Assembly: GCA_963932905.1 (NCBI GenBank)
Contig: CAWVRN010000003.1
Coordinates: forward strand, 192,001 to 256,000
DNA from: an uncultured Bdellovibrio sp.
GTDB lineage: Bacteria; Bdellovibrionota; Bdellovibrionia; Bdellovibrionales; Bdellovibrionaceae
Length of the DNA: 64,000 nt
Direction: 5' to 3'
Shown: positions 25,645 through 51,696 of the stretch, piece after piece
How the letters are laid out: every line of letters begins with the position of its first letter
How positions within the stretch are numbered: the first letter of the stretch is position 1
Translations under genes and position numbers: made by a program
The notes under the pieces: model-generated
Databases searched by the model: none
What the model was told of the DNA's origin: nothing
Seen by the model: only the letters and a program-made list of their open reading frames with translations

Positions 25645-25662
25645 AAATTTACCTTTTGACTG

Positions 25663-26227: not shown

Positions 26228-26269
26228 ACGTACTCCTTTTTAAAAAAGCGAAAATTCGCTTTCGTTGAT

Positions 26270-26620: not shown

Positions 26621-26652
26621 TTAATCTCCAATTATTTTGATTTTGGAAGAAA

Positions 26653-26910: not shown

Positions 26911-26922
26911 AACAACTCCTAT

Positions 26923-30057: not shown

Positions 30058-30075
30058 ATATTTAATTCCTTATAA

Positions 30076-31907: not shown

Positions 31908-32023
31908 TGGAATACTCCAAAAGTAAAAAGTTGTTTGTTTCGAAATCCAAAACGAAAAGCAGTAGCTAATCGATAGACTATCGAATCGTTAAAGTTGTCT
32001 TGAGATTGGAGCCTTATAGACTC

Positions 32024-32365
32024 TTAAGATATTGGAGGACGGAAAGGGCTTGATTTAAAATCTGAAAGATTAAAGTCACCTTTTACTGGTACGAAACCAG
32101 ATAATTCATGAGTCGAAAACAAAAGTAAATTAGCGGAAATAGTAAAAGAGCAGTGCCCTAGATGACAATTATGACATGCTCTGTGTTCGTGAGATGCTTC
32201 AGAATGATTCTCATCCTGGCAAGGAACAGCTGCTTTTAAAACAGACACTTTGTCTTCACTTGAAATAGAATTACGAGGGTGAGAGTCATCGCAAGAACCG
32301 TTCACAGGTTTTGAAACGCTAACCATAGTAATTAAGATGAATAGAAAAGCCAAAAATGTTTTCAA
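32024..32365 (-). CDS. CzcI-like exported His/Cys-rich protein
   Basis: Signal peptide, CHNCHLGHC, C-terminal RPP; upstream of the czcC-like gene. Confidence 0.7.
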   Translation of the reverse strand: MKTFLAFLFILITMVSVSKPVNGSCDDSHPRNSISSEDKVSVLKAAVPCQDENHSEASHEHRACHNCHLGHCSFTISANLLLFSTHELSGFVPVKGDFNLSDFKSSPFRPPIS

Positions 32366-32539
32366 AAACGTCCTTTATTTACTTAAACTTACCTCGACCT
32401 ATTTTATTTGTCAAAGCCGGGATCTGATATTTCAATCTTATAATCGGTAAGTTGACTTTGAGACTTAACCTCAAGAAAACATAAAGGATTTTGATTCAGA
32501 TTGAGACAATTGACCTTATTTGAAATAAATTAAATGTTT

Positions 32540-33316
32540 TTAGGAGTTCGGTCGCCAGACTTTTATTTCAGCCAGTTCTTCTTCTGTGGGAGTATCTTTC
32601 TGCCATTTGGATTTCAGGAATCTGTCCGTCTCAACTTTCCAAGGTAGCTCAACTCTATTTTCGAGTAAAAATTTATACCTTTCAACTCCCGACATTTTCT
32701 TGTTCTTCAGCCAATCTTCATATGCTGACTCTCGAATGATAAAAATGCTTCTGTCATGTCCAGCATTAAAAAATGCTTCGTAAGGGTCATCTGTAATTAA
32801 TGTGAATGTTTCCTTTACTTCCCCAGTTGTTCTATTCATCCAGTCTTCCCAGAGTCCCGCGACATAGTATGTTTCTTTGTTTTCAAGGCAGAATTGAACC
32901 ATTTGGCCGCCATGAGTACCGAAATAACATGATTCAATCGCTGACGTTAATGGAACTAAACAAGTGTGCCCTTTATTGAATGAGTTTCTCCATGTAGGTA
33001 CTTCATAAATATATTCAATAATTTTATTTCCGTTTTTGTCCAAGACCAACTCACCCATCCTGTTTCGCTTATAACGCCGCATACGAGCATTGTAAGTGGT
33101 GGGCTTAAACGGAAATTTGCTGGCCCACTCTGGACATATGGAAAAAATTAGCTCCCTTATTTGGGTTTTTCCATTTTTGTGAACTACAACTGGAGCCGTC
33201 TCTGTCTTTGGATATCCTCTTATCCTGAAATCAAATTCTTGCTGGACATACTTTTCGACGTCGAATTTTTTTGCGATATCTTTTGCTTTAGCGACTAGAA
33301 TATATGACTCACACAT
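32540..33316 (-). CDS. SRAP (YedK/HMCES) abasic-site processing protein
   Basis: Cys2 (MCESY), TYNAR, AGLWEDW, TFTLIT, HDR. Confidence 0.85.
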   Translation of the reverse strand: MCESYILVAKAKDIAKKFDVEKYVQQEFDFRIRGYPKTETAPVVVHKNGKTQIRELIFSICPEWASKFPFKPTTYNARMRRYKRNRMGELVLDKNGNKIIEYIYEVPTWRNSFNKGHTCLVPLTSAIESCYFGTHGGQMVQFCLENKETYYVAGLWEDWMNRTTGEVKETFTLITDDPYEAFFNAGHDRSIFIIRESAYEDWLKNKKMSGVERYKFLLENRVELPWKVETDRFLKSKWQKDTPTEEELAEIKVWRPNS

Positions 33317-33466
33317 TTTGACCTTCTATTTATGGTCGATTGATTCCAATCTAACATCAACCTGCAAATAATCTTTTCCCTGTCTATAAGTCTAATTCAA
33401 CGACATCTTTAGTCATTTAACAGGAAAGCCGTTGATTTGCACTTACATATAATTTACATATTAATC

Positions 33467-33802
33467 ATGGAACCGAAAGAGTGGCAACATTTGCTGGATT
33501 TTTTTAAGCACGTTCAAGCCAAAATTTATCGTGTAAAGTTCCATGGGACGATAACGATGGCTGACCGTAGGCGATACCAACCTTTGCTTAACAGCATTGA
33601 TATATTGGTTAAAGTGGCCTCCGGTGAAATTGAACAAAGCTATCGAAATTTTAAATATTGTAGAAATGCTTGGCTAAGAGTCGTTGACCTCCTTAAAAGA
33701 GATCGGGATTTTTTTGACGAGTATAAAAAAGACAAAGAGCTAAAATTGATTTTAAGGAAATTTTTAGAAAGGGGAACAAATGATCACCACAAAGTATATT
33801 AG
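33467..33802 (+). CDS. Hypothetical protein
   Basis: First of four closely packed ORFs; ATG at 33467. Confidence 0.55.
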   Translation: MEPKEWQHLLDFFKHVQAKIYRVKFHGTITMADRRRYQPLLNSIDILVKVASGEIEQSYRNFKYCRNAWLRVVDLLKRDRDFFDEYKKDKELKLILRKFLERGTNDHHKVY

Positions 33803-34016
33803 TCCAAAATTAGGTTTTTTGAAAAGCATGCCTGCATTACTGAGCTACGTCGAAAAAATGAAGTTCGATCTAGAATCTATAATTTCAATTGAAAAGAAAG
33901 ATTTTGGATACGCATTTAATGGACTTCGTTTTTCGTATCATGTCCAAACAGATTCTCAATTCAGTTTTTTTAGATTGAACCTAGTAATAAACGAAATTCA
34001 GTGTGAGGCATCGTGA
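33780..34016 (+). CDS. Hypothetical protein
   Basis: AGGGG RBS; overlaps both neighbours. Confidence 0.5.
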   Translation: MITTKYISPKLGFLKSMPALLSYVEKMKFDLESIISIEKKDFGYAFNGLRFSYHVQTDSQFSFFRLNLVINEIQCEAS

Positions 34017-34303
34017 CTCGAAGACCTCAATATCATCCTCCTGTTCCTAAAAACCCTGTATGGAAAAAGGTTGGAAATTTCTATTACGCGGATAAAACGG
34101 AGTTTGAGAAATTGCTCAGCGAATGTGTTTTCTTAGACAGCTATATACAAAAGACTCTAGGAAACGCATACAAATATATCGGGCATGTCTTAGCTGGAAT
34201 GGGGTTAGAAGCCTCCACTGCTGTATTTGTAGAAAGCGCATTAGATTCCTCGTTGAAAAAAAACGACCATTATCCAAGAGAGCAAGTTTACAAAAACCCG
34301 TAA
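34013..34303 (+). CDS. Hypothetical protein
   Basis: GTGA overlap; GAGG RBS. Confidence 0.5.
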   Translation: MTRRPQYHPPVPKNPVWKKVGNFYYADKTEFEKLLSECVFLDSYIQKTLGNAYKYIGHVLAGMGLEASTAVFVESALDSSLKKNDHYPREQVYKNP

Positions 34304-34312
34304 ATACCGTTT

Positions 34313-34528
34313 ATGAGCCCCGTCGAAACATTTATTTCTGAAAAGACGAAATTAGCCAACATCTTAAAAAGGTGGTGGCAGTATGAAGATGAAGAAATCG
34401 ACTTCGACCTCGTCTTAGGAAAACTGAGGTTGTTAGTTAATCAATGCCCTGACGAGTTTGCAGAACAGTTTCAACTTGAGCTGATCGAAATAGAAAATGA
34501 CCTGAGAGAATACGGACTAATCGAATAA
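34313..34528 (+). CDS. Small acidic hypothetical protein
   Basis: ORF 9 bp after the previous stop. Confidence 0.5.
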   Translation: MSPVETFISEKTKLANILKRWWQYEDEEIDFDLVLGKLRLLVNQCPDEFAEQFQLELIEIENDLREYGLIE

Positions 34529-34550
34529 AGTCCGTACTTCGTAATAAACT

Positions 34551-34961
34551 CTAATAGAGATAAATTATTACCATAAAGTTATTTTTACACCAATGAGCCC
34601 AATCACCCTCTTTAACAACTCCATGTCCAGATCGGCAAGGACCTAAATCTTTTGGGCGCGGCCAAACATCCTCAACTAGATATCGACCTCGATCAAAAAT
34701 CATTCTTCCACTTTTATCGAAAACTGCAAACCGTTCAGAGGAAGTAATGTCATACAAAAATCCATAAGAAAGCTTGTCCTTGTTTGGGAGTTTTTCTATC
34801 TCGCCTTCAGACAACGCAACCACGCCAGCGTAACCACCTTCCATGCCGCTGTCATGGAAAGTGTTCAAAGTGCCTCTCAGAAACGACCTCTGTTCTTGAT
34901 TATTAAAATCATTCAGATGAATCGGCTTTTTAGAAAAAACATTTTTAATAAATTCAAACAT
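34551..34961 (-). CDS. Hypothetical protein
   Basis: AGGAGG RBS. Confidence 0.6.
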   Translation of the reverse strand: MFEFIKNVFSKKPIHLNDFNNQEQRSFLRGTLNTFHDSGMEGGYAGVVALSEGEIEKLPNKDKLSYGFLYDITSSERFAVFDKSGRMIFDRGRYLVEDVWPRPKDLGPCRSGHGVVKEGDWAHWCKNNFMVIIYLY

Positions 34962-34976
34962 CAATTCCTCCTATAT

Positions 34977-35156
34977 CTATTGTGAACTTCCCACTAGCTG
35001 CTGATTCACTTTCCTCATACTCTCTAACCCCTTCCGTGTGCTATCTAAAGCTCTGCCTTGAAGATCTGTAAGAACTGATACAAGAAAGCCAGAAATAATG
35101 AGAATCCGAATCGCACCAAATAAAATAGTAAATGATCTAAAAACTATACTCTCCAA
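34977..35156 (-). CDS. 59-aa single-TM protein (not in the ORF track)
   Basis: AGGAGGG RBS, TTG start, MESIVFRSFTILFGAIRILIISGFLVSVLTDLQGRALDSTRKGLESMRKVNQQLVGSSQ. Confidence 0.6.
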   Translation of the reverse strand: MESIVFRSFTILFGAIRILIISGFLVSVLTDLQGRALDSTRKGLESMRKVNQQLVGSSQ

Positions 35157-35211
35157 AATTCCCTCCTGATAGGAAAGGAAAGCTTCCTTTCAAACTGTAG
35201 TCCAATCTAGA

Positions 35212-36858
35212 TTAGCCAAATGCAATAGGTTCGGTCGTTGGTCTTAGTAGTTGACGCAAGCCAGTTGGATTTTTTCCTATAATGCTTTTAATTGAACTTG
35301 AAACCTTAATCGAGTCTTTACTGCTTGAAGTCGCTAAATGGATTGAGTCAAATCCCAAATCTGAAATCCTCTCTGCATACACTTCACCTTTAAATTCAGC
35401 GCCAAGATTAGAGTCGATAAAAATTGGCGTACAATTCCCAATAGATTTCGATTCTTCGAAAAACGATTGTACATTAGAGTAAGTTTTTATTTTAAATCCA
35501 TTTTTAGAACTCCAAATTTCCCATGTTGTCCTATGAATTTCTTCGTCATCGATTAATACAAGATCCAGAGAATTTAAGTCTATTATTTCTCGAGTCTTAG
35601 AATCTAGAATTTCCGATACAGGAAATTGGATTGTAACCTGGGTTCCTTTTCCTAATTCTGAGGATAAAGAAAAACTACCGCCAATCTCCTTCAAGGTTTT
35701 AATTGCCGAAAAAACTCCGCGTCCAGTCCCGGTACCATTGTTTCTATGCGAGAATCCTTTGGTTCCTACTTTTCTGATAACATCATTTGATATTCCAACG
35801 CCAGTATCCGAAATTACAATTTTAACTTCGCCTGCGTTGCAACTCAGTTCGACTTCTATCTCTTTTTCTTTCAGGCAAGCATGAATTGAGTTATCGATAA
35901 CGTTGGATAAAATTCTCGCAAGCGAAGCACTGCTTAACTTCGTCTCGACATTGAAGTTAGGAGGTCCAATGTACTTAATATTCCCTCCCACAAATAGTGG
36001 GGACTTTTCAGTGATGATATCGTTAACAGCAGTTCCAAGATTAAAACTCCTGACGTCACTCAAATTATCAATCCTCATTTCTGCCTGAAGAAGAAAATTT
36101 GCAACTGATTTGGCACGGCTTACTGCCTGGTCTAAAGCCTTTTTCAATTGATTTTGAGGTAGATCCATCAATTCCACTAAAGCGCTGATAGCCGCAATCG
36201 GACTTCGAATATCATGTGCGACTTGTTGATTATTCTCTCGAATAGCTAGCATAACCGCTTTTTCAGCCTCTATGTCTTTAGAAGTCTTAATTTTGAGTCG
36301 CAATTCATTTAGTTCGTTTATTTCTAGTGATTTATCGCCTAAAAGATTATTTATCAAAGGATCGAAAATGTCTTTTGCAATTCTCTCTTTCGTAGATTGA
36401 ATAAAATAAATTCCGACAAGAACAAGAATCAGCGACCACCCCAAACTTCTGAAGATTGACCAAAAGTCGTCTAAGTAACTAAACCTTGCGCGAATAACCT
36501 GAGTTCCGGACCCAGTAATTTTCACTTCTACAATTCGCTCAAATAGCTTGCGCGATTCTGTACATGAATTTAATGACCTGTTGGCCCCAATAACTTGCGT
36601 TTCTCCAGAACAAACTTCAGCCCCAGTAGCTCCTGCTTGAGTTAAAACCATTCCCAAAATACTCTCCGCTAACACGCGGTTATTCTGATTAAAAGCGAGA
36701 CTCAAGAGATCAGCAGTTTGCTTAACGTATGTATCGTTTTTTACCTGTATCGCATAGAAAGATCGTACAGAAAAAAAGACCCAAACAGAGATCATAAAAA
36801 GAGCCACGATCATTTGTGGTCTAGTGTGGTACTTTTTTAACCATTCTTTTAATGTCAT
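35212..36858 (-). CDS. Membrane sensor histidine kinase with C-terminal receiver-like domain
   Basis: Two TMs with periplasmic loop; AHDIRSP H-box, N box, DTGVG, GTGRG; LIDD..FIDSNL. Confidence 0.92.
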   Translation of the reverse strand: MTLKEWLKKYHTRPQMIVALFMISVWVFFSVRSFYAIQVKNDTYVKQTADLLSLAFNQNNRVLAESILGMVLTQAGATGAEVCSGETQVIGANRSLNSCTESRKLFERIVEVKITGSGTQVIRARFSYLDDFWSIFRSLGWSLILVLVGIYFIQSTKERIAKDIFDPLINNLLGDKSLEINELNELRLKIKTSKDIEAEKAVMLAIRENNQQVAHDIRSPIAAISALVELMDLPQNQLKKALDQAVSRAKSVANFLLQAEMRIDNLSDVRSFNLGTAVNDIITEKSPLFVGGNIKYIGPPNFNVETKLSSASLARILSNVIDNSIHACLKEKEIEVELSCNAGEVKIVISDTGVGISNDVIRKVGTKGFSHRNNGTGTGRGVFSAIKTLKEIGGSFSLSSELGKGTQVTIQFPVSEILDSKTREIIDLNSLDLVLIDDEEIHRTTWEIWSSKNGFKIKTYSNVQSFFEESKSIGNCTPIFIDSNLGAEFKGEVYAERISDLGFDSIHLATSSSKDSIKVSSSIKSIIGKNPTGLRQLLRPTTEPIAFG

Positions 36859-38378
36859 TATTTCACCTTATAAATATATAGATGACCTTCACTACGTCTT
36901 AGAATTTTTTCGCTGATGGAGACCTTGTCATTTCTGTAAACAGCGACCGACTTTACAAAACCCAGGTGGACGATTGGTACTTCATCGAGAATTACTTTAC
37001 TTACTTTCTTATAGAAAGGGTCGATTTCATCACGCTTAACGATTTTTCGCCCCTCTTCAAGAATATCTCCAACCTTTTTATTCTTTAGCATTGGACTCGC
37101 GATGGCACCTTGTGGGCCAAGCAAATGATATATTCCATCCGGGTCGCCAGAGGCCACTCCGAAAGCTCCTGGAATAATGTCGGCTTCTTGGCCATCGTAA
37201 ATCGCTTTAATTAAATCGCTTTTCGATACAATTCTGGATTTATCCGAAATGGTAAGTCCTACTGATTCAAGAAAATGTCGTATTGAGACTTCTTGAACTT
37301 CCAAAAGTACGATTGGATTTAGTTTTGAAGCATCCCTTAATTCATCAACAAACTTTTTACCCTGTTCAACTCGACTTAGAACTTCTGACTCATCTATTCT
37401 CCCCGCCTGGTAAGGTAGGTACACTTGAGGATCTTGATTAGAAAAGTTTGGGTTACCGAGCAACGAATGATCTTTTTTCGCAAATTCATAAGCCAAATAC
37501 TGCAACGCTTGTCGGTACTCCCTTTTTTCGAAAAGTCTTCCTTTTTGCTGGTTTGGATATATTGCCTTGTGAGCCGCATCTTGTCCTACCAACACTGATA
37601 CTTTCTCGTTCGATGATACGGTTTCTGGAATGCTACTTCCCAATGCATAGGCCATGACGTCTAACTCTCCTCGGAGCAACGCTTGATAGGAATCCGCGGT
37701 ATTAATAACTCGAAGATCAATCTCGCCTTCCGGCGGTGTTTGAAATCGCATGTTTGGAACTAACCTTAAATGATCTTGACCCAACTCACTAATCTCGTAG
37801 GCTCCGGTGCCAATAAATTTCCCTTGAACCTCACGATAGGCCGAAAATCTACTTCCAGCGAGGTGTTCCAATGCCATCCGAAAGGAGCTTGAAAAGTTCA
37901 ACTCTAAGGTCTCATCATCGATAACTTTAATTCCCGAAATTGTTCCTGTTTTCTCGAATTCTGAAAATCCATCTATTTTATACAAAACATCTAACACACT
38001 ATTATTCGAAGACTTCGGATCAAGCTTTAAGGCATTTTCCCATGAGCTCTTAAAATGTTTAGCTGACAACCGAACGCCATCAGCGAAAAATCTAGAAGTA
38101 TCGATCTTAAAAGTTAGTTTTTTAAAATCTGGTGATGCCGACCACTCTTTGGAAGCTAGAGGAGCATACACGCCATTTTCATTGAAACTTACTAGAGCTT
38201 CAAATTGATTGCTTAAAGTTAAATCCCCAATAAGGGTATGCTGTAGTCCCGGACTAATACTTATCCAAGGACTGTTAAACGCGATTCTTAATGGTCGAAT
38301 TTCAGTAGTTGAGTTCATTTGAACAGCCCCAAATCCAAAAAGTGTTACTAATAATATAAGTCCTAATATTCTCTTCAT
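36858..38378 (-). CDS. Orphan family-5 (OppA/DppA-like) solute-binding protein
   Basis: Signal/anchor; PLA..W.., F.DG..L.A, IGTGAY, DEVPIV; no permease or ATPase genes nearby. Confidence 0.85.
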   Translation of the reverse strand: MKRILGLILLVTLFGFGAVQMNSTTEIRPLRIAFNSPWISISPGLQHTLIGDLTLSNQFEALVSFNENGVYAPLASKEWSASPDFKKLTFKIDTSRFFADGVRLSAKHFKSSWENALKLDPKSSNNSVLDVLYKIDGFSEFEKTGTISGIKVIDDETLELNFSSSFRMALEHLAGSRFSAYREVQGKFIGTGAYEISELGQDHLRLVPNMRFQTPPEGEIDLRVINTADSYQALLRGELDVMAYALGSSIPETVSSNEKVSVLVGQDAAHKAIYPNQQKGRLFEKREYRQALQYLAYEFAKKDHSLLGNPNFSNQDPQVYLPYQAGRIDESEVLSRVEQGKKFVDELRDASKLNPIVLLEVQEVSIRHFLESVGLTISDKSRIVSKSDLIKAIYDGQEADIIPGAFGVASGDPDGIYHLLGPQGAIASPMLKNKKVGDILEEGRKIVKRDEIDPFYKKVSKVILDEVPIVHLGFVKSVAVYRNDKVSISEKILRRSEGHLYIYKVK

Positions 38379-38380
38379 GA

Positions 38381-38725
38381 CTAACTCTGTATGATATGGC
38401 TAGCACCAGCCGTAATGATCGTTTTCTCGTCCATTTGGATATAACCGTTCTCCATCATGAATTGAATCGCCTTAGCAAAGCTTTCATCAAGGATCTCACC
38501 ATTCAATCCCGTTAGCTCAGAATACCTTTGACGAGCCGATTCTAGATCAATCTGCCTCTGTCCGGTGGGAAGTAAAAGATATCTGATTTGTCTAGCTGTT
38601 TCCCGTAGAATCCACTTTTGATTCTCGCCCTCAATCTCACTTGCTTTCCCATAAGCAGCAACTGCGACAGATGAAATTGGCATGTAGCTCAATATCAAAA
38701 GCATAATCTTTAAAATTTTCTTCAT
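38381..38725 (-). CDS. Secreted 114-aa protein, candidate precursor/substrate of the radical SAM enzyme
   Basis: Sec-type signal MKKILKIMLLILSYMPISSVAVA; ATGA overlap with the rSAM stop. Confidence 0.7.
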   Translation of the reverse strand: MKKILKIMLLILSYMPISSVAVAAYGKASEIEGENQKWILRETARQIRYLLLPTGQRQIDLESARQRYSELTGLNGEILDESFAKAIQFMMENGYIQMDEKTIITAGASHIIQS

Positions 38726-39792
38726 AAAACCCCCGTCTTATTTAATTCAAAATTTTCTTTCCAGCACCCTGGGTCAGGACCCAAAAAATTTCCAGTAGCA
38801 GCATACGCCGCATTCCTATCGCCCCCACATACTTCATAATGAGGACACTTTCCGCAAACTTCTACATTGCCTGCCCTTAGTTCTTTATAAATTGAATTGT
38901 TCAAATAAACTGATTCAAGCCCGTCTCTCAATGAGTGCCCTAATTTAATTTTAGATCGGCTGCTTGCGATTATATAGCCCTGATAGTCCACAACTATTAG
39001 TTCCCAATATCGACCGCTCCGTCCTAATCCAGGAATTAGCAGCTCAAATAGTGGACTCTGCGTAGCGCTCCTTACTTGGTACTTTGTAATAAAATGAATG
39101 ATATTTCGATAGGCCGCTTTTAGTTCAGCGCCTTCTAACGGACGATCTTCAGAAGCGTCCAGCAAACGTCTACCATATCCTTCTGGAACAAAACGAACGA
39201 AATTTACGGATTTAAACTTGAATTCCTTTGCAAGTTTAAAAAAGTCTTCCATCCACCCACTAGTGCGATAAGAAAGCACTGACAACACATTTACATTCAT
39301 ATTAAGTGCGAGGAGGTTATTAATACCATCAAGAGCCTTATCAAAATTTCCTTCTCCCCGAATGCGATCATGTCGTTTAGAGTCTGGACCATCTAGGCTC
39401 ACCTGAAATTCGATATCTCCCAATGATTTCAGCTTTCTTGCTAATTCTTTGGTAACAAGTGTTCCGTTTGTAAGGATACAAATCTTTGCTCCAGGAATAT
39501 TCTCTCGAATGTATTCTAATATTGGAAATAAGTGGGGGCTTACCATAGGTTCACCCCCGCAAAGTACAATCCAAGGCCGATAGTACATTTTGCGAATGAG
39601 TGCCTTGTACTGACGCAATATTTCTTTCCACTCATTCAAAGATAAAGCACCTTCATTTTTATGGTCAGGATGGTAACAATGCACACAACGTAAGTTACAT
39701 GAATTGGTAATGTCTAACTGAATAGGAAGATACCTATCGACATTGATGGTTTTTAGCAAAAAGGCCTCAAGAATGTTATTTAGAAACTTCAT
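38722..39792 (-). CDS. Radical SAM enzyme with SPASM-like C-terminus
   Basis: CNLRCVHC, GGEP, TNG, VSLDG..HDRIRG, CGKC.....CGGDR...DPGCW. Confidence 0.93.
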   Translation of the reverse strand: MKFLNNILEAFLLKTINVDRYLPIQLDITNSCNLRCVHCYHPDHKNEGALSLNEWKEILRQYKALIRKMYYRPWIVLCGGEPMVSPHLFPILEYIRENIPGAKICILTNGTLVTKELARKLKSLGDIEFQVSLDGPDSKRHDRIRGEGNFDKALDGINNLLALNMNVNVLSVLSYRTSGWMEDFFKLAKEFKFKSVNFVRFVPEGYGRRLLDASEDRPLEGAELKAAYRNIIHFITKYQVRSATQSPLFELLIPGLGRSGRYWELIVVDYQGYIIASSRSKIKLGHSLRDGLESVYLNNSIYKELRAGNVEVCGKCPHYEVCGGDRNAAYAATGNFLGPDPGCWKENFELNKTGVL

Positions 39793-39994
39793 TCCCGCTC
39801 ACCTTTTGCTGTATTGATTCTAATTCCTTAGCAATCATTTCGATCTTAGCAATGGCCTGTTTGTGAATCTTTGAAGACAGTTCTTGCTCATCAGATTCGC
39901 TAAGCTCTCTAGAATATTCTAGAGGTCCAACGAGTCCGAGGATATCATGCTTTAAACTCTCGATATCGATAGATTTACCCTCTAAATATTTCAT
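39776..39994 (-). CDS. 72-aa helical hypothetical protein
   Basis: GGAGG RBS; ATGA overlap upstream and 17-nt overlap downstream. Confidence 0.65.
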   Translation of the reverse strand: MKYLEGKSIDIESLKHDILGLVGPLEYSRELSESDEQELSSKIHKQAIAKIEMIAKELESIQQKVSGNEVSK

Positions 39995-41520
39995 AAAGAG
40001 CCCTCCATATTTATCGAGTATTGTCTCTGTTTGGTCGTGTAGGTGTTCGTTGAAATCTTCAACAACTCTGCACCTTTTCTAATAGATGTCTCATTCCTGT
40101 GGAGTTCTTCAAAAATTCTTCTCTCAAAAATCTCTGTAGCTATCTTGAGGCCTGGGAAATCTGCGTCGATGAAATTAGTTCGCATCGTTTGGAGATGAGC
40201 AATATTCAAAACTTCATTTCTTTTTAAAGCAACAGGAACAGTGAGACCTATTGTCTTTTTCCATTCCTTAAGGTTTGGGCGACCACCTTCATCGTATTTG
40301 GTATGAGCAACAAGTCTCTCGACATCGTTTTCTATTCCGCGAATATTTCCCGGGATCTCATCTCTACCAAAATACTCAAGCAAGTCTTTCGGTAGATCAT
40401 GAATTTCAATTTGTTTATTTTTGTGTTCAGCACACGCCCTATTGAGAAATCCAGAAATAAGCGCTGGAATATCTTCTTTCCGATCACTTAGTTTCGGCAT
40501 CATAATTTCAAAGATTGAAATACGCATATAGAGATCTTCTCTAAATTTTCCTTCAGCAACTAGCTTCTTCAGATCCTTGTTAGTTGCAAAAATAAAGCGG
40601 GCATTGGTTTTAATAGGACGATTTCCTCCAACTCTATAGTATTCTTTTTCTTCAACTACTTTTAATAATTTGAGTTGAAGTTCAAGAGAAGCATCCCCTA
40701 CCTCGTCTAAGAAAATATCGCCATCTCTCGCAACATCCAGAAGGCCCGCCTTTGTCTGTTTTGAAGCATCCGTAAATGCTCCCGGTTCTGTGCCGAACAG
40801 AATGGCTTCGGCCATGTTACGCTCAGTCGCCCCTATATTTAACTGCACAAACTCACGCGCACTCTGTGATTTAGAATCTTTGCTGAACTCACTCAGTCTT
40901 CTTGCCGCCGCACCTTTTCCTAGGCCAGTATCCCCTAGTATAAGCACGGGTCTCGACGTTTCACTCAATGCATTTAATTTTTCGCTCAATCTTTGCATTA
41001 CCGGAGACTCACAAACATACGTCGAATAAAGGCCTTTTTTTCCCGGAGAACTATTTTTAGTTTTTGCGAAATCTTCAAAAAAAGACATGAATGATTTTTT
41101 AATTATTTCTAGTCTTAGTTCAGTAGACGCATCGTCAAATGATTTAAATAGATAATTTGATGCACCTAACTTAATTGCGCGAGCAATTTCTCTCGTCGAA
41201 ACATCTGAAGTTAAAACTAGAAACTGGGATAATGGTTGGATTGATTTCAATTCCACTAGAAAGTCGATACCGTTTAATTTCTTTCCCTTTTTATCAACTC
41301 CCAGATCTTTATCCAACAGTACTAAATGTATCTTACTATCCGCTAAGAGGTCCTTTGCATCGGTCACATTGCTTGCACAAAGGAAATTAATTTGGTCAGT
41401 ACTATTTAAAGTCTTCTCCTCAACCAATTTGGAAAATATTTTTCGGCACATACCTTCTGTTGTGGTCTGCCACATTGGCTCATCATCAATAATTAGAACT
41501 TGAATATTTTTAGAAATCAC
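39991..41520 (-). CDS. Sigma54-dependent response regulator (NtrC-type enhancer-binding protein)
   Basis: Receiver IIDDE..LLDKDL; GDTGLGK, GAFTDA, FLDEVG, FREDLY, PGNIR; C-terminal HTH. Confidence 0.93.
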   Translation of the reverse strand: MISKNIQVLIIDDEPMWQTTTEGMCRKIFSKLVEEKTLNSTDQINFLCASNVTDAKDLLADSKIHLVLLDKDLGVDKKGKKLNGIDFLVELKSIQPLSQFLVLTSDVSTREIARAIKLGASNYLFKSFDDASTELRLEIIKKSFMSFFEDFAKTKNSSPGKKGLYSTYVCESPVMQRLSEKLNALSETSRPVLILGDTGLGKGAAARRLSEFSKDSKSQSAREFVQLNIGATERNMAEAILFGTEPGAFTDASKQTKAGLLDVARDGDIFLDEVGDASLELQLKLLKVVEEKEYYRVGGNRPIKTNARFIFATNKDLKKLVAEGKFREDLYMRISIFEIMMPKLSDRKEDIPALISGFLNRACAEHKNKQIEIHDLPKDLLEYFGRDEIPGNIRGIENDVERLVAHTKYDEGGRPNLKEWKKTIGLTVPVALKRNEVLNIAHLQTMRTNFIDADFPGLKIATEIFERRIFEELHRNETSIRKGAELLKISTNTYTTKQRQYSINMEGSL

Positions 41521-41623
41521 TGAAGGCCCCCACCTTTTCGACGAGACTGACTCTAGTTTTTTTGTTTCAGTTTTTGAAGCGCAAATGTCTCACTCTGTAA
41601 AGATTCTATGTCTCAATCTTTGC

Positions 41624-41648
41624 GTCTCAATGTCTGAGACATTGAGAC
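41624..41648. promoter_or_regulatory. Perfect 12-1-12 palindrome, candidate upstream activator site
   Basis: GTCTCAATGTCT-G-AGACATTGAGAC; further TGTCTCA half-sites at 41586 and 41609. Confidence 0.65.
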
Positions 41649-41739: not shown

Positions 41740-41754
41740 TGGCATGGTACTTGT
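41740..41754 (+). promoter_or_regulatory. Candidate sigma54 -24/-12 promoter of the transfer region
   Basis: TGGCAT-GGTAC-TTGT versus consensus TGGCAC-N5-TTGC. Confidence 0.55.
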
Positions 41755-41812
41755 CGTAAAACTATGCCAACACCTTTTCCGAGCTGAAAAGTGACAATAT
41801 TTGGGGGTAAAT

Positions 41813-42115
41813 ATGAAAAACAAAATCACGAAAATTGATACTAAGACTAAGGAATTTTTATTCAAAAAGTGTCCTTCATGCCAAAGCACTGAAATTCTAA
41901 AACTCGAAGAAGATACAATTTGCCTAAGCTGCGATTGGAACTCCGCTCAAATGGATGTTACTTCGGGAAACTTCGAGAAGCGCCTCGCACTTAACGCCTT
42001 CGCCGCCAAACAAGAGAAACCAATTCGAGTAAGATCCAAGATTCTGCACCTTGATACTCCGGAATCAGACGCCACTCCAAATCAAGAGCATTTATCATTA
42101 GCGGCCTGTGAGTAA
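41813..42115 (+). CDS. Small zinc-ribbon protein
   Basis: CPSC..CLSC; GGGGG RBS. Confidence 0.65.
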   Translation: MKNKITKIDTKTKEFLFKKCPSCQSTEILKLEEDTICLSCDWNSAQMDVTSGNFEKRLALNAFAAKQEKPIRVRSKILHLDTPESDATPNQEHLSLAACE

Positions 42116-42118
42116 CTC

Positions 42119-42328
42119 ATGCTGGCTTATATTCTTGAAAATTCAGACGCAACCGATTCTCAAGACGGTTCGATTTTGGTGAATTCAAAAAATTGGTCAT
42201 CAGAAGATTGGGAAAACTATTTGAAAACAATTGAATCTGAAAATCCCGAGGAGGAAGTATATGTTGGTACTGCAAACGATCTCGAAAATTTCGTCGCGTA
42301 CAAAAAGAACAATTCGAGACTATATTAA
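42119..42328 (+). CDS. Small acidic hypothetical protein
   Basis: 3 bp after the previous stop. Confidence 0.5.
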   Translation: MLAYILENSDATDSQDGSILVNSKNWSSEDWENYLKTIESENPEEEVYVGTANDLENFVAYKKNNSRLY

Positions 42329-42476
42329 TGGTTGGATCTCCCATCATTCGATTGAGCATCAATGGAATTCTAGAGAGGCCGTCACTAAGTGGAGAAACGG
42401 AGACAAAATTAACGTAGCTCTCTAACCGCTCCAATCCAAGCCACTTTTTCAAATTCAAATGAGCAAAGGAATACCT

Positions 42477-42875
42477 ATGACAACTATTGATATTAAAAAT
42501 CGATTTCACGTTTATACCGGCTTCAAAGAAGCGGCTGGAGTGAGGAACGCACTTCAGGCAGGAGAAGCCTACGAGGTTAATTCTCCTGAAAAACCACACT
42601 ATATAGTTAAGATGTGGGCGTTTCCAAGAGAGCTGTTCTATTTGGTAGCTAACAAGACAGGAGACGGAAATTTCACTCTGTTTGCGAAAAAGGTTATCGG
42701 AAATGATGTTCCAACTTTTCGCCGCCCAGTCGGATTCGGTTTTGTTTCCAAAGATCTAAAGAGGCATCTTGAAATTCAATTCACGTTTCCAAGACAGCGA
42801 GTATTTATGAGCTTGTTTCCCGATCAGGTAACAATCGACAGTCTTATTTCGGAAAGTGGCGGAGTTGACCTATGA
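42477..42875 (+). CDS. Hypothetical beta-rich protein
   Basis: AAGGA RBS before MTTIDI. Confidence 0.6.
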   Translation: MTTIDIKNRFHVYTGFKEAAGVRNALQAGEAYEVNSPEKPHYIVKMWAFPRELFYLVANKTGDGNFTLFAKKVIGNDVPTFRRPVGFGFVSKDLKRHLEIQFTFPRQRVFMSLFPDQVTIDSLISESGGVDL

Positions 42876-43192
42876 GTTCGTTCGGCAATATTCCCGTAAC
42901 ACTACTATTTCGATGTGATCTTAGAGACACGGCAGCGCTCGTTGGACTTGTTGAAATGAAAAAAAGAATTGGCACCATCGCCTACACTGGCCCCCTAGAG
43001 ATGAAGAATCTGGATTATATTGGACTTCTTAATTCCTGGCTTCGCCTTCGCGGGCAGCCAATTATTTCGATTCACCCGCATTTAAAGGTCGAACAACTTG
43101 AACGAATAGTAGATCCAATTTCCGAATGGGGTTGGAAAACTTCAGAGTGTGTTGCTGCCATCAACTTAGCCGGACTGCCCTTACCAAATTAA
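42872..43192 (+). CDS. Hypothetical protein
   Basis: ATGA overlap; GGAG RBS. Confidence 0.55.
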   Translation: MSSFGNIPVTLLFRCDLRDTAALVGLVEMKKRIGTIAYTGPLEMKNLDYIGLLNSWLRLRGQPIISIHPHLKVEQLERIVDPISEWGWKTSECVAAINLAGLPLPN

Positions 43193-43210
43193 TTTTTATC
43201 AGGAGAAAAA

Positions 43211-43576
43211 ATGGAAAAGAAAATTTCAAACTCGATTAGTGCCTTGTACCTATCCGCTATCGCTACAACTTTGTGGTCGTTTATGGCTTTCCTTGAAATT
43301 CAACAGCTAAATGCTGGATTTGAACTCGAACCATTCACTACCCCATTCACAGCCATTCGTTTCGCATTCGGACCGATCCTATTTGGAGTTTTAACCTTTT
43401 TCGTTGCGCAAGAGCTCAGAAAAAAAACTAAGTGGTCGTGGATTTGCGCAATTGCTCTGTTCGTTTTCAATTCCGTCGGCTTCGCATTCGTATTTTCAAT
43501 TTATGGAATAGTACAATTGTGCGACCAGGAAGTAAGGGAATATTTTCTAAAGCAAATGGACTTTAACCTGAATTAG
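43211..43576 (+). CDS. Small multi-TM membrane protein
   Basis: AGGAG RBS; 3-4 hydrophobic segments. Confidence 0.6.
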   Translation: MEKKISNSISALYLSAIATTLWSFMAFLEIQQLNAGFELEPFTTPFTAIRFAFGPILFGVLTFFVAQELRKKTKWSWICAIALFVFNSVGFAFVFSIYGIVQLCDQEVREYFLKQMDFNLN

Positions 43577-43637
43577 CCTCAACGAAATCATTTCGTAAAT
43601 TTAAGAGCCACTTAACCCACAAACAAAGGAATGGAAC

Positions 43638-43919
43638 ATGAAAATGTCCAACGGTTTGTTTGCGATTGTGTTGGCTCTATCGTTGTTTATGCCACTTACA
43701 GGTTTCTGTAGTGTCGAATCCACCCTAGGGACAATTCAATCCAAACTAATAAATCAAATTCTACCACTATGCGCGGTACTGGGACTGGTGTTTGCCGCTT
43801 TCTCATTTTTTACGGGAAATGCAAATGCTCGGTCCCATCTATGGCTCGCGATTATGGGAATGGTCATTGGTTTCGGTGCGCCTAGTATTATGACCTTTAT
43901 TCGCGGCTTAGTTAACTAA
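43638..43919 (+). CDS. VirB2/TrbC-like pilin
   Basis: Leader plus two hydrophobic helices ending IGFGAPSI; sits before the VirB3/VirB4-like genes. Confidence 0.75.
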   Translation: MKMSNGLFAIVLALSLFMPLTGFCSVESTLGTIQSKLINQILPLCAVLGLVFAAFSFFTGNANARSHLWLAIMGMVIGFGAPSIMTFIRGLVN

Positions 43920-43958
43920 ATTCGAAATCTCATTAGCCACTCTACCCTTTTTTGCGGG

Positions 43959-44282
43959 ATGCAAATGCCATTAAAAACGGAACCAACTAGCCACAGTTTA
44001 GAAAGAAAATTATTAATATTAGGATACGAAGTTCCGGACGTCCTGGCTATTTTTCTGCTACTCTCAATCCTTAATTTTTTATTCGGATCAACAAACCAAA
44101 AATTACTTCTGGTCTGGCTTCCCGTCGTCGTTGTGGCGCTGGTACTAAAAATAGGTAAACGAGGAAAACCAGATAATTATTTAATTCATCTTGCAAAATT
44201 TCAGTTTAATCCAAAATACCTGTCTGCCTTCAGTGAGCCGTCGAACTCAAAACCTTCACCAAAAATAGGAAAAACAAAATGA
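43959..44282 (+). CDS. VirB3/TraL-like membrane protein
   Basis: Two TMs, KRGKPDNYLIH; ATGA overlap with VirB4. Confidence 0.65.
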   Translation: MQMPLKTEPTSHSLERKLLILGYEVPDVLAIFLLLSILNFLFGSTNQKLLLVWLPVVVVALVLKIGKRGKPDNYLIHLAKFQFNPKYLSAFSEPSNSKPSPKIGKTK

Positions 44283-46681
44283 TTTCTGCATTGGCCGACC
44301 ATCTTCAAATATGGGGATTCGAAGAAGATGCTATTATCTACACGGACGGCTCGCTTGGTTTTGCTCTAGAAGCCACTCCGGTCGACGTATCCACATGGAG
44401 TGACGAAAGACTAAATGATCTCTCTATCAATATCCAACAATTCCTAAATGGTCTTTCCCCAAACATCGATATCCAATTTGTTCAGGACATTCTGCCGGGA
44501 AACCAAAAGGTAATTGAACATCATCTTTTATTGGGAAGCGAATCCCACAATGAGGTGGCAAAATCACTGTGCAATGAGAGAGCACAGCTACTTAGGAAAG
44601 ATGATGAACTTGGTTTTTTACCGACTCATCAGCTTAAAGTAATTGTCCGAAAACCCCTTAGTAGTTCCCTTATTTCAACCCCGAAACTATTTTCGAAAGA
44701 AAACAATTTTCAAGAAATTTCTGAAGCTAGACTTAAAAGCGAAATCGACAGCCTGCTTCGCTTAAGAGATAACATTGTCCAAGGATTAACATTACTAGGC
44801 GTCACCTGCCGATCATTCACATCCGACGAAATTGCTTCGATACTTTATAAACAGTGGAATCCTTCCCGTCGAATACCATTTCAGTCCTATGACCCCGAAG
44901 AAGTACGGCAAACATTGCTGTATTCAGACGTTGCGATAAGTTTGGCGGGGTTCGCGATTGGTCAGACTCAATTTCGAGTGATTTCTCTGAAACAACTTCC
45001 AGAGCAAACGTACTCGTCGATGGCATCTCAGCTAAGAGAACTTCCCTTTAAATCGCGATTGTATACAACGATACATGTCCCTGACCAAATGAAAGAAATC
45101 CAAAATTTGCAAACTCAGAGAAGAATCGCGTATTCCATGGCAGTTGGAAAACGCACCGGCGTATCCGACATTGAAAGTTCGGCAAAGTTCCAAGACCTAG
45201 AAACTTTGCTGGAACAAATGATTGCCCAGGGGCAAAAAGTATTTCACGTCTCAACTACAGTTCTTCTTCAAAGCGAAGACGAAACGGATCTAGAAAACCA
45301 AGTGGATCTTACGCTTTCGAAATTCAGAGAAATGGGAGGAGCCGAAGGACTAACTGAATCACTAGCTAGTTTTGACATTTTTGCGCAGGTCGCGCTTCCG
45401 AACTCGCGCTGTAAAGAGCGGGTCAAAAAAATTAAAACCTCGAACCTTTGTGATTTACTTCCCATTTACGGTCCATGGCCGGGTCACAAAAAACCGAGCA
45501 TTATTTTAAAGTCCCGAATGGGCAACATATTGAGCTTTGATCCGTTTGATCCTTCTCTTTCAAACTTCAACTCACTAGTCAGCGGAGCCAGCGGAAGTGG
45601 AAAGTCAGCGATGACTAATCTCTTACTAATGCAAATGCTTAAAGAAAACGTAAAGGTATTCTTTTGCGACGTAGGCGGCTCGTACAAAAAATTAACCGAA
45701 AATCTCTCAGGCCAATATGTTGAATTGGGGACAAACGATCATTTAGCAGTGAATCCCTTCGATTTGCTGCCTGGTGAATCGCTACCTTCTCCTCAAAAAA
45801 TCAAATTTCTATTGGGATTGGTCGAATTAATGACTAGAGAGGACGGCTCTGAGCGTATTCCCAAATTAGCTAGATCCGAAATTGAATCTGCCATTCAGAA
45901 AGTTTATGATACACAAAAGAGCCCTACTTTATCACATCTTCGCACACTACTGCTCGAACACCCTGAGAAGGAAATCAAAAACTACGGGAGAATTCTTTCT
46001 ACTTGGTGTGGCGATACACCCTATGGCCGATTCATCGACAAGCCTACAAACGTTGAATTCCAGAAGGATATAGTCGCGTTTGATTTGAAGGGCTTAGAAA
46101 ACTATCCTGATTTGCAGGGAGTATGCCTATACATTATTACCGACCTTGTTTGGCGAGAGGTTCAGAAAGATCGGTCCCGAAAAAAATTTATCGTTTTTGA
46201 CGAATGCTGGAGGCTTCTGCGCGACGATGCCGCAATTCTATTTATTGAAGAAGTTTTTCGGACTGTTAGAAAGTATTATTGTAGTGCCATCGCAATAAGC
46301 CAGGATTTATCGGATTTTCTAAACTCCAAAATTTCGTCAGCGCTACTGCCAAACTGCACTATAAAATGGATACTCACTCAAAACCAGAGCGACTTTTCAA
46401 AAATGAAAGAATCATTAGGATTAAATGATAACGAAATTTCATTGATCCAATCACTTCATCAAAAAAAGGGTGAGTATGCGGAAGCATTTCTGGTCGCAGG
46501 CGCCGAAAGACGAACTGTCGCTGTTATTGAGCCAACACCGCTTGAACTTTGGATTGCGACGACCGATCCTCGTGATTTGGCTGAAATCGAGCAATTTAAG
46601 AAAACAGAACCTCAACTAAGCCAACTTGAAATCTTAAAGCATCTAGCCAACAAATTTCCAAGGGGCGTCGCCGCTTCCTAG
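44279..46681 (+). CDS. virB4: VirB4/TraC-family T4SS ATPase
   Basis: 800 aa; GASGSGKS, D.GGSY, NPF, FDECW, RKY..ISQ. Confidence 0.9.
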   Translation: MISALADHLQIWGFEEDAIIYTDGSLGFALEATPVDVSTWSDERLNDLSINIQQFLNGLSPNIDIQFVQDILPGNQKVIEHHLLLGSESHNEVAKSLCNERAQLLRKDDELGFLPTHQLKVIVRKPLSSSLISTPKLFSKENNFQEISEARLKSEIDSLLRLRDNIVQGLTLLGVTCRSFTSDEIASILYKQWNPSRRIPFQSYDPEEVRQTLLYSDVAISLAGFAIGQTQFRVISLKQLPEQTYSSMASQLRELPFKSRLYTTIHVPDQMKEIQNLQTQRRIAYSMAVGKRTGVSDIESSAKFQDLETLLEQMIAQGQKVFHVSTTVLLQSEDETDLENQVDLTLSKFREMGGAEGLTESLASFDIFAQVALPNSRCKERVKKIKTSNLCDLLPIYGPWPGHKKPSIILKSRMGNILSFDPFDPSLSNFNSLVSGASGSGKSAMTNLLLMQMLKENVKVFFCDVGGSYKKLTENLSGQYVELGTNDHLAVNPFDLLPGESLPSPQKIKFLLGLVELMTREDGSERIPKLARSEIESAIQKVYDTQKSPTLSHLRTLLLEHPEKEIKNYGRILSTWCGDTPYGRFIDKPTNVEFQKDIVAFDLKGLENYPDLQGVCLYIITDLVWREVQKDRSRKKFIVFDECWRLLRDDAAILFIEEVFRTVRKYYCSAIAISQDLSDFLNSKISSALLPNCTIKWILTQNQSDFSKMKESLGLNDNEISLIQSLHQKKGEYAEAFLVAGAERRTVAVIEPTPLELWIATTDPRDLAEIEQFKKTEPQLSQLEILKHLANKFPRGVAAS

Positions 46682-46691
46682 AGGTGTAAAG

Positions 46692-47378: not shown

Positions 47379-47386
47379 AGAATTTT

Positions 47387-48888: not shown

Positions 48889-48929
48889 CAAATCATAAGA
48901 GACACAAATTTCAAAAGCTTGGACAAAAA

Positions 48930-50169: not shown

Positions 50170-50224
50170 ACTCTCATTAAAAAAAGATTCTTAATAAGTC
50201 ACTACCTTAAAAAAAGCGGTAAAT

Positions 50225-51694: not shown

Positions 51695-51696
51695 GC

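Follow-up and report, generated by a model that had tools for sequence, protein, structure and literature searches.

We analysed a 64,000-nucleotide stretch of DNA from an uncultured Bdellovibrio sp. (assembly GCA_963932905.1, contig CAWVRN010000003.1, positions 192,001–256,000 of the forward strand), hereafter the window, in which six genes at 35212–41520 encode a sigma-54 activator, a 72-residue protein, a radical S-adenosylmethionine (SAM) enzyme, a small exported protein, a periplasmic binding protein and a membrane histidine kinase. This cassette lies within an integrative and conjugative element (ICE), divergent from its conjugation operon. We propose, with a probability of about one half, that the cassette is a make-export-sense-respond module that was captured by the ICE and wired to its transfer genes. 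The signalling module appears to be real, conserved and undescribed; the chemistry of the signal and the self-sensing loop are put forward as hypotheses.

Gene content and conservation of the cassette

The open reading frame (ORF) listing of the window showed that the six minus-strand ORFs at 35212–41520 are real and that their coordinates needed no change. In the order of transcription they encode a sigma-54 enhancer-binding response regulator of 509 aa (39991–41520; Pfam Response_reg, Sigma54_activat and AAA_lid_14), a clade-specific protein of 72 aa with an H-box-like motif and no Pfam family (39776–39994), a radical SAM enzyme of 356 aa (38722–39792; Pfam Radical_SAM, PF04055, E 9e-27), a small exported protein of 114 aa without a Pfam or NCBIfam family (38381–38725), a family-5 (OppA/NikA-type) periplasmic substrate-binding protein (SBP) of 506 aa (36858–38378; Pfam SBP_bac_5, E 3e-25) and a hybrid sensor histidine kinase of 548 aa (35212–36858; Pfam HisKA and HATPase_c). 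All six proteins scored below the cut-offs of the NCBIfam models. From the activator to the kinase, the genes are joined by a 4-nt overlap (ATGA), a 17-nt overlap, a second 4-nt overlap (ATGA), a 2-bp gap and a 1-nt overlap (TAATG). An earlier note on this DNA had described these junctions, and also the divergence of the cassette from a conjugation operon; both descriptions agree with the ORF coordinates, the plus-strand type IV secretion operon encoding VirB2-like, TraC/VirB4, TrbL, TrbI and coupling proteins.

The cassette was then compared with related loci. One genome per species was scanned, giving 305 relatives in 327 candidate stretches, from which 78 loci were kept, 71 of them with a strong family member. 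Sixty-one loci offered room of 700 nt or more; in 59 of them the enzyme gene is followed by the SBP gene, and in 51 of these 59 the kinase gene comes next, most of the misses being contig ends. A small ORF with a signal peptide lies between the enzyme and SBP genes in about 51 of the 71 loci, as counted with a regular expression that overlooked several more. The activator gene is directly upstream of the enzyme gene in 29 of 71 loci and directly downstream of the kinase gene in another arrangement seen in 6 of 71. The recurrence of this order in dozens of genomes puts the arrangement far beyond what chance would give.

The cassette occurs in Bdellovibrionia, Bacteriovoracia, Oligoflexia, Elusimicrobiota and a few bins with other labels, and homologues carry Bdellovibrionota names. 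Several genomes have two or three copies, and among 41 related genomes an orthologue of the enzyme was found only in the window's own genome and in G031. The earlier note had suggested a search for the six-gene order beside VirB4 or an integrase. The core order and, as described below, in some loci the proximity to conjugation genes were upheld by this survey, but not the full set of six, as the 72-aa ORF is present in only 3 of the 71 loci (L012, L042 and L080). In one Elusimicrobiales locus (L068, 9998–17229), two convergent enzyme-SBP units flank a kinase gene.

Setting in an ICE and linkage to conjugation genes

That the cassette is carried by an ICE, as the earlier note had it, was borne out. 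Two minus-strand tRNA-Val(GAC) genes identified with ARAGORN, a left copy that forms the att-side repeat (15241–15316) and a right copy (56450–56525), lie 41.2 kb apart and bound an element of ~41 kb; a 75-nt direct repeat with 83% identity links the left copy to 56444–56518. Plus-strand genes for mating-pair formation and DNA processing (42459–52566; Pfam and NCBIfam) comprise three small ORFs followed by VirB2-like, DUF3487, TraC/VirB4 (E 1.5e-88), VirB5-like, TrbL, TrbI/VirB10, FtsK-like coupling (FtsK_SpoIIIE) and MobC-like genes. For a relaxase there is only a weak match to a MobC-family ‘replication-relaxation’ model at 51697–52566 (E 1.6e-5, 24 bits against a cut-off of 200); the integrase, a weak tyrosine-recombinase match (Phage_integrase, E 8e-4), is encoded on the plus strand at 54767–56206, abutting the right tRNA gene. 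The paired tRNA-Val genes, the integrase, the secretion genes and the coupling protein therefore place the cassette inside an ICE.

Conjugation genes also accompany the cassette elsewhere. Searches with phmmer, using the window's own secretion proteins, found VirB4 relatives within the fetched flank (within 10 kb) in 7 of the 78 loci; this method undercounts conjugation genes, and the 52 loci searched by phmmer only may hide more. A Pfam search of 19 further flanks found conjugation domains in four (L027, L020, L049 and L051), with coupling-protein and VirB11-like genes beside the cassette in the last three. Overall, 11 or more other loci have conjugation genes, of two secretion-system types, beside the cassette. 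When VirB4 was searched for in 15 whole genomes, its distance to the cassette was 9–19 kb for L027, L032 and L035, and 38 kb for L046; for the other genomes searched, among them Oligoflexus tunisiensis and four Elusimicrobiota bins, none turned up on the contig or in the genome. In a quick maximum-likelihood tree of the radical SAM enzyme, the linked copies occupy four or more places. With many relatives unlinked and the linked copies scattered over the tree, the cassette core is therefore a portable generic module that is not specific to ICEs; ICEs have taken it up or kept it repeatedly, only some copies being wired to them.

A candidate sigma-54 promoter faces the transfer operon

The earlier note had proposed that the first cassette gene encodes a sigma-54 activator. 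The domain content agrees: the protein is a complete sigma-54 enhancer-binding response regulator, with a canonical receiver (Response_reg, E 4e-9; DD at 12–13 and LLDKD around 70), an AAA+ domain with a GAFTDA loop (Sigma54_activat, E 1e-49) and a C-terminal helix-turn-helix. It scores below the NCBIfam cut-offs for NtrC (228 against 559 bits) and LuxO (163 against 800 bits). The genome also encodes RpoN (G000:C2:328170–328649, 220 bits).

The activator gene and the first plus-strand gene are separated by 293 nt, and this gap holds a sigma-54-type −24/−12 element, TGGCAT-N5-TTGT, on the plus strand at 41740–41755 (position weight matrix score 17.1), facing the transfer operon. Its −24 GG and spacing fit a sigma-54 promoter, and it is the single match to the pattern TGGCA[CT]N5TTG[CT] in the 64-kb window. 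This pattern, anchored on TGGCA[CT], replaced a strict consensus (TGGCACN5TTGCW with up to two mismatches) that was dropped, having given 20 matches against 23.7 expected and missed the 41740 candidate. The element is retained in both syntenic relatives (L012 and L080) amid poorly conserved DNA. A repeat search found a perfect 12-nt inverted repeat at 41624–41648, a candidate binding site for the activator (upstream activating sequence), centred ~104 nt upstream of the sigma-54-type site and accompanied by half-site copies at 41584–41592 and 41609–41617. Palindromes of different sequence occupy the equivalent place in L012 (8124–8140) and L080 (8111–8127 and 8155–8171), and in the relatives the distance from palindrome to −24 element is 103–159 nt. 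A sigma-70-like promoter for the cassette itself (TTGAGA-16-TAGAAT, minus strand, 41603–41630), a consensus match only (10/12), overlaps the palindrome.

Across 1.13 Mb of related loci there were 41 matches to the sigma-54 pattern, most of them intergenic; 30 shuffles gave 7.9 on average and 16 at most. For the 19 loci with an upstream activator gene and sufficient DNA, the site drives the cassette in 10 and is divergent in four, and five have no site by this pattern. In L027, the divergent site is directed at a tra operon of the F type that encodes TraU, a VirB11-like ATPase, TraF, TraE and TraK.

In the window, the sigma-54-type site is followed first by a gene (41813–42115, plus strand) for a zinc-ribbon protein of 100 aa that is 48% and 38% identical to its counterparts in L012 and L080, with an invariant CxxC...CxxCDWNS...GNFEKR pattern. 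It gave no family match at E ≤ 0.1 and nothing significant in Pfam up to E 5, and might serve as a secondary regulator of either excision or transfer. The second gene of the same unit (42119–42328, plus strand, 69 aa) is 47% identical to the ORFs in the same place in L012 and L080. A minus-strand ORF at 42117–42599 (160 aa) was rejected as a gene because this conserved plus-strand ORF occupies its place. As judged from the position of the site and the direction of the genes, the cassette is credibly wired to the transfer operon of this ICE, and it probably decides when the element spreads.

Alternatively, the cassette could be self-contained cargo, with a regulon consisting of itself or at most the genes at 41813–42328, and with the neighbouring tra genes marking an insertion hot spot. 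The 10 loci in which the site drives the cassette are consistent with this, as are the 344-nt gap between 42115 and 42459 and the sites in Elusimicrobiota, which precede genes for a RamC-like lanthipeptide synthetase, radical SAM enzymes, an ABC ATPase and major facilitator superfamily (MFS) proteins, and also truncated RpoN paralogues. A related ICE region in G003, with 88% identical DNA from the integrase to the coupling protein at the same tRNA-Val, comes from a genome in which no orthologue of the radical SAM enzyme was found; however, the G003 contig stops within the element, so the absence of the enzyme there is not established. On the other side, the linkage to conjugation genes recurs with two secretion-system types, in two layouts (divergent and tandem) and at scattered places on the enzyme tree. 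Moreover, every gene from 41813 through the integrase has the same orientation, and in a consensus scan the stretch from the promoter to VirB2 contained no terminator-like site on the plus strand, the sole site (43778–43762) being on the minus strand. We therefore regard the cargo explanation as improbable. The earlier idea of a self-contained loop gating the tra genes nevertheless survives only in part: the conserved unit and the −24/−12 element and palindrome directed towards the transfer operon speak for it, but the module is generic.

Two observations concern the Elusimicrobiota. In L056, a gene for a RamC-like class III/IV lanthipeptide synthetase (7027–10047) lies behind a sigma-54-type site beside the divergent activator gene of the cassette, which suggests that the module may control a cluster for a peptide synthesized by ribosomes and modified after translation (RiPP) there. 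Proteins of ~350 aa with the sigma-54 DNA-binding domain only are encoded next to the cassettes of L026 (1239–2288), L060 (8735–9787) and L070 (4347–5429), and sigma-54-type sites precede two of the three genes. A regulatory role as truncated RpoN paralogues is conceivable for these proteins.

The radical SAM enzyme resembles peptide and protein modifiers

The enzyme has the CxxxCxxC cluster motif in its TIM-barrel core, and C32, C36 and C39, as well as C313, C316, C322 and C343, are invariant in an alignment of 27 sequences. The radical SAM assignment of the earlier note thus holds, but its SPASM label fits only partly. The Pfam SPASM model did not match at E ≤ 0.01, and the C-terminal domain, which is SPASM-derived, retains the Cys ligands for one of the two SPASM auxiliary clusters. 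When aligned with the anaerobic sulfatase-maturating enzyme (anSME), the protein lacks the Aux-I cysteines and has Asp as the fourth Cys of CX2CX5CX3C; we therefore expect it to contain only one auxiliary cluster. Since the cluster motif begins at residue 32, the enzyme has no N-terminal domain, and a RiPP recognition element (RRE; PqqD-like) is neither fused to the enzyme nor encoded in the cassette. The nearest outgroup radical SAM genes (~30% identity; L083, L084 and L087) adjoin PqqD-like genes, and genes for Cys-rich peptides lie beside outgroup enzymes.

Comparison of the enzyme profile with solved structures gave SkfB as the best match, over the N-terminal half only (E 2.5e-21), and anSME as the sole full-length match. 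An AlphaFold model (mean predicted local distance difference test score, pLDDT, 88) was closest in Foldseek to anSME, SuiB, SkfB, ChlB, CteB, TigE and PqqE. In NCBIfam the best scores went to the heme b synthase AhbD (E 1e-36), NirJ1 and AhbC; neither the anSME family models nor TIGR04280 was among the 25 best of the 78 matches. No sulfatase gene was found near the cassette by Pfam among the window ORFs, and the small proteins lack the C/S-x-P-x-R motif.

The AhbD, NirJ1 and AhbC scores raise the question of whether the enzyme is of a cofactor type, with AhbD/NirJ-like tetrapyrrole chemistry and the small protein as a periplasmic carrier of the product. However, these matches span the core half only (residues 26–212) and reach 127 bits against a cut-off of 500, whereas the full-length matches are to MftC, NirJ2, GeoRSP and anSME and the top fold matches are to peptide or protein modifiers. 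In addition, Pfam detected no tetrapyrrole genes in the window or the scanned flanks, and the small protein has neither Cys nor a heme-binding motif. A cofactor role is thus highly improbable. By sequence and predicted fold the enzyme groups with the peptide and protein modifiers, and its grouping with cofactor enzymes, which the earlier note had named as an outcome that would count against its idea, was not observed. One public protein, P0103 (476 aa), has the enzyme and the small protein in one frame with no intervening stop, which might reflect either a genuine fusion or the loss of a stop codon.

The small exported protein is the regular partner of the enzyme

The 114-aa ORF is translationally coupled to the enzyme gene through their 4-nt overlap. 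Its signal peptide is conserved: the N-terminal 25 residues share one consensus across phyla and the remainder is variable. L is found at −7 in 35 of 41 sequences, L at −4 in 38 and A at +7 in 38, positions that were not selected by the anchor of the regular expression; the signal peptides of the SBPs from the same loci, in contrast, have no consensus. Some relatives of the small protein carry twin-arginine motifs. Beyond the signal peptide, the small proteins split into unrelated classes of 25 to 110 aa, those of Elusimicrobiota having only 25–35 aa after the signal peptide. In its place beside the enzyme gene, its conserved leader and its variable core, the family resembles the precursor genes of RiPP maturases. 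The earlier note had also offered the 72-aa protein as a precursor. This was not borne out, and that candidate was rejected: it occurs in 3 of the 71 loci and resembles the DHp/H-box hairpin of the kinase. On gene order, the 114-aa protein and not the 72-aa ORF is the universal partner of the radical SAM gene.

The class to which the window's protein belongs comprised 91 representative clusters at E ≤ 1e-3 (1.84 billion representatives searched). In 61 members, conservation of at least 90% was limited to P16, A24 and S109, making S109 the sole conserved residue of the mature part. The AlphaFold model (pLDDT 87) has a helix and a winged-helix-like domain, with S109 in the low-confidence C-terminal tail (residues 106–114). 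Foldseek returned no solved fold at E ≤ 0.001, the weak rows being winged-helix domains, and an atlas search with the protein gave no usable feature match, just weak structural rows. Cassettes that reside in the same genome have different C-terminal tails (L025 and L048, L020 and L021, L035 and L046). A bufferin-like role in metal binding was rejected, as the protein has no Cys and one His. The ‘secreted protein’ of the earlier note is thus right as to the conserved signal peptide and the universal partnership, but in this clade the product is predicted to be a folded domain of ~90 aa rather than a short peptide. We infer from the gene coupling that the enzyme may modify the small protein.

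The binding protein, the kinase and a possible relay

The earlier note had described an OppA-like binding protein with no permease or ATPase. This proved correct, as Pfam found no ABC permease or ATPase domain in the 64 other window ORFs and none near the relatives in the scanned flanks. The solved structures nearest to the SBP are peptide-binding proteins, including PrgZ (E 2.6e-12), and the ligands of these relatives are oligopeptides, murein peptides, dipeptides or nickel. That the SBP senses the modified small protein is our inference from the adjacency of their genes.

Disrupted copies of the SBP gene were seen twice. In G031 (L011/L022, 1593–3368), a transposase of an insertion sequence (IS) lies between the small ORF and an SBP remnant; the 72-aa ORF is absent and the gene order is the same. 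G001 (L092, G001:C47, 1158–19320) has DNA 97.9% identical to 20170–38192 of the window. Its contig ends 140 nt past the 38192 match, inside the SBP gene, in unrelated transposase-like sequence, and the remaining cassette and transfer genes were not found in the G001 genome.

The kinase has two transmembrane segments enclosing a periplasmic loop of ~90 aa, followed by HisKA, HATPase_c and a C-terminal receiver-like domain. In an alignment of 20 sequences, H215, N319, N323, D351, G353 and G377–381 are invariant, as are the periplasmic C83 and C99 and the receiver hallmarks D438 and D482; T510 is kept in at least 90%. The C-terminal part alone matched Pfam Response_reg with an E of only 0.27. In the 72-aa protein, L14, H16, D17, L21, P24 and L25 are invariant (L-x-H-D...L..P-L), and hhalign placed its residues 13–62 on residues 212–262 of the kinase DHp domain, with H16 on H215, in a weak alignment (E 0.0021, probability 13%). 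Neither the 72-aa protein nor the ends of the kinase had anything significant in Pfam at E up to 5. The 72-aa protein is thus a candidate stand-alone DHp/phosphotransfer or kinase-modulating protein. Given the receiver hallmarks in the kinase and this DHp-like ORF, a relay like LuxQ-LuxU-LuxO is plausible in the window's clade.

Proposed mechanism and points against it

In the mechanism that we propose, the cytoplasmic anSME-like enzyme would modify the small protein ahead of its export, the most likely site being the conserved Ser of the tail or its close vicinity. The small protein would then be exported by Sec (by Tat in some relatives), and in the periplasm the orphan OppA-type SBP would bind the modified tail, or a fragment released from it, and switch the hybrid kinase. 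Phosphate would pass to the receiver of the activator, in the window's clade perhaps via the 72-aa DHp-like protein. The activator would bind the palindrome and open the sigma-54 promoter, from which the zinc-ribbon protein, several small genes and the operon for the mating pore would be expressed. Elsewhere in the family, the targets of the module would be itself or RiPP gene clusters. In a more specific version, Sec- or Tat-exported small proteins with a C-terminal Ser modified by the anSME-like radical SAM enzyme would act as self-signals read in the periplasm by the OppA-type co-receptor, hybrid kinase and activator; ICEs of Bdellovibrionota, with two or more secretion-system types, would use private variants to time the building of the mating pore, and the module would be a RiPP switch in Elusimicrobiota. 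This version seems to us possible, with the odds against it.

Several observations weigh against the proposed loop. With regard to the promoter, the −12 element reads TTGT in place of the canonical TTGC, the same variant being kept in L012 and L080, and at least one match to the pattern occurs in 36% of shuffled windows; the weight of the site therefore rests on its position and conservation. As for the link to transfer, conjugation genes are missing from 15 of the 19 flanks scanned with Pfam, including that of L043 from the window's own four-member clade, and five cassette-bearing genomes gave no VirB4 with the query used. Homologous cassettes away from conjugation genes were what the earlier note had said would undermine its idea, and to this extent they do. 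The enzyme has no RRE. The kinase has a receiver, yet the candidate phosphotransfer protein is restricted to four loci and its similarity to the DHp domain is weak. The SBP gene is broken by IS elements in two relatives, so the cassette is dispensable there. In the window's clade, the small protein is predicted to be a folded domain of ~90 aa, and Pfam found no dedicated exporter or protease in the cassette; the small protein may therefore never leave the periplasm. Free diffusion across the outer membrane, and hence true quorum sensing, is doubtful for the modelled domain unless it is processed. Finally, 45 SBP positions are invariant among 30 cassette SBPs, whereas the small proteins are hypervariable, and the SBP may therefore recognise something else.

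In another explanation, the output would be the same but the SBP would sense an outside ligand, such as oligopeptides or cell-wall peptides from neighbours, recipients or prey. The enzyme and the small protein would then supply an accessory of the receptor in the periplasm, for instance a modified co-receptor or modulator, and not the signal. The ligands of the nearest solved relatives are compatible with it. So are the invariance of the SBP set against small proteins that vary nearly everywhere, the low likelihood that a folded small protein crosses the outer membrane, and the lack of an exporter or processing protease. Against this, the enzyme, small ORF and SBP genes are adjacent in the same order in two phyla, a constancy best fitted by a producer-receptor pair. 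The differing C-terminal tails of cassettes that share a genome are as expected of private signals, and the Elusimicrobial small proteins are merely 25–35 aa long after the signal peptide. We thus consider sensing of an outside ligand unlikely, and retain the make-export-sense-respond loop as the working explanation.

Comparison with known systems

Transporter-less binding proteins that act with a membrane kinase and a sigma-54 response regulator are known from the LuxP-LuxQ-LuxU-LuxO circuit of Vibrio, which responds to autoinducer-2 (AI-2), and from AioX-AioS-AioR. As in the Lux circuit, the cassette kinase keeps its receiver hallmarks and a small His-containing protein is encoded between the activator and enzyme genes. 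However, the SBP belongs to family 5 (OppA-type) and does not have the LuxP-type sugar-binding fold; the activator reaches only 163 of the 800 bits required for LuxO; the 72-aa candidate is DHp-like, not an Hpt domain, and is found in one clade only; and the presumed signal is gene-encoded, beside a radical SAM enzyme. The cassette may therefore work like the LuxPQ-LuxU-LuxO circuit but is not a member of it.

The enzyme shares its fold and size with anSME, SuiB, SkfB, CteB, PqqE and MftC. anSME acts on Ser or Cys of proteins that bear export signals, its substrate motif being C/S-x-P-x-R in sulfatase, and, like the cassette enzyme, it has no RRE. Unlike anSME and the SPASM maturases, the cassette enzymes lack the cysteines of the first auxiliary cluster.

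RteB of CTnDOT, a conjugative transposon of Bacteroides, is NtrC-like. The element-borne two-component system RteA-RteB is described as starting the transfer cascade of CTnDOT (PMC5812530). Its trigger is tetracycline-dependent translation of the operon, and neither a binding protein nor a radical SAM enzyme nor an exported protein is part of that system. The same review describes the ICEBs1 RapI-PhrI type of control, in which a mobile element encodes a Sec-exported pro-peptide and times its transfer with it (PMC5812530). pCF10 has its own OppA-family pheromone-binding protein, PrgZ, the detectable relative of the cassette SBP mentioned above. In contrast to the cassette, ICEBs1 and pCF10 have peptides that are imported and bind cytoplasmic RRNPP receptors, and have no radical SAM enzyme; detection in the cassette would be periplasmic, through the kinase, in a host with an outer membrane. 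Neither an oligopeptide permease nor an ABC ATPase nor a cytoplasmic TPR receptor of the RRNPP/Phr type was found among the 70 scanned window ORFs.

Bufferins are RiPP precursors of 80–120 aa with a Sec signal that are modified in the cytoplasm, fold as small proteins and are periplasmic (PMC11626156). They are a published precedent for long RiPP precursors with a Sec signal (PMC11626156), as proposed here for the small protein. The bufferin enzyme is an MNIO with a DUF2063 partner, in contrast to a radical SAM enzyme, and bufferins are Cys-rich copper binders, whereas the small protein contains no Cys and goes together with a receptor kinase.

According to the review, self-signalling of ICE and plasmid transfer in Gram-negative bacteria uses acyl-homoserine lactones, and gene-encoded peptide signals for transfer are known from Gram-positive elements only (PMC5812530). 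Our literature search, which covered sources other than subscription journals and supplements, found no described cassette of radical SAM enzyme, exported protein, orphan SBP, kinase and sigma-54 activator, on or off mobile elements. This agrees with the statement of the earlier note that no Gram-negative ICE system of this architecture was known.

If the more specific version of the mechanism is true, it would provide the first gene-encoded signal, peptide or protein, that controls conjugation in bacteria with an outer membrane. The proposed loop, if it holds, would define a new class of exported proteins modified by radical SAM enzymes, in which one conserved Ser offers a concrete chemical target, a new receptor type in which an OppA homologue is a kinase co-receptor, and a testable switch of horizontal transfer in predatory and environmental bacteria, whose elements described here bear resistance genes for copper and arsenic. 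Direct testing in a surrogate host is favoured by the compactness of the promoter, palindrome, activator and small protein.

Further features of the element and its surroundings

Between the two tRNA-Val genes, the ICE also carries copper/RND efflux cargo and, after the transfer region and before the integrase, a DNA methylase gene. The flank to the right of the ICE is kept in eight of nine genus relatives. The left flank (13000–15230) is not conserved in the genus because a second island sits there, and the picture is that of a tandem array with no clean empty site. This second island of ~13 kb (1995–15316), in tandem with the ICE, lies between a third tRNA-Val fragment (1995–2063) and the copy at 15241–15316. 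Its genes encode a Cu ATPase, MerR-type regulators, a multicopper oxidase, CusF, ArsC-like, ArsH-like and Acr3-like proteins and an extracytoplasmic function (ECF) sigma factor; its DNA was not found in the nine genus relatives.

In three related loci (L021, 10802–13284; L025, 17625–20083; L029, 19285–21002) and in contigs C10 and C11 of G043, VirB4/TraC is encoded by two abutting ORFs with the same split. This points to a naturally split gene or to programmed frameshifting, and not to an error of assembly.

Metatranscriptome contigs from four runs in three studies overlap scattered parts of the cassette and operon, one of them covering 38278–38797. Their depth is low, DNA carry-over is possible and no starts or strands are visible, and they were not counted as evidence of expression; gaps in their coverage likewise carry no information.

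Four public proteins (P0001, P0130, P0137 and P0139) are 98% copies of four cassette proteins and are encoded on a contig of 42,003 bases. This length is near the 41.2-kb size of the ICE, and the contig might represent the element assembled alone or as a circle.

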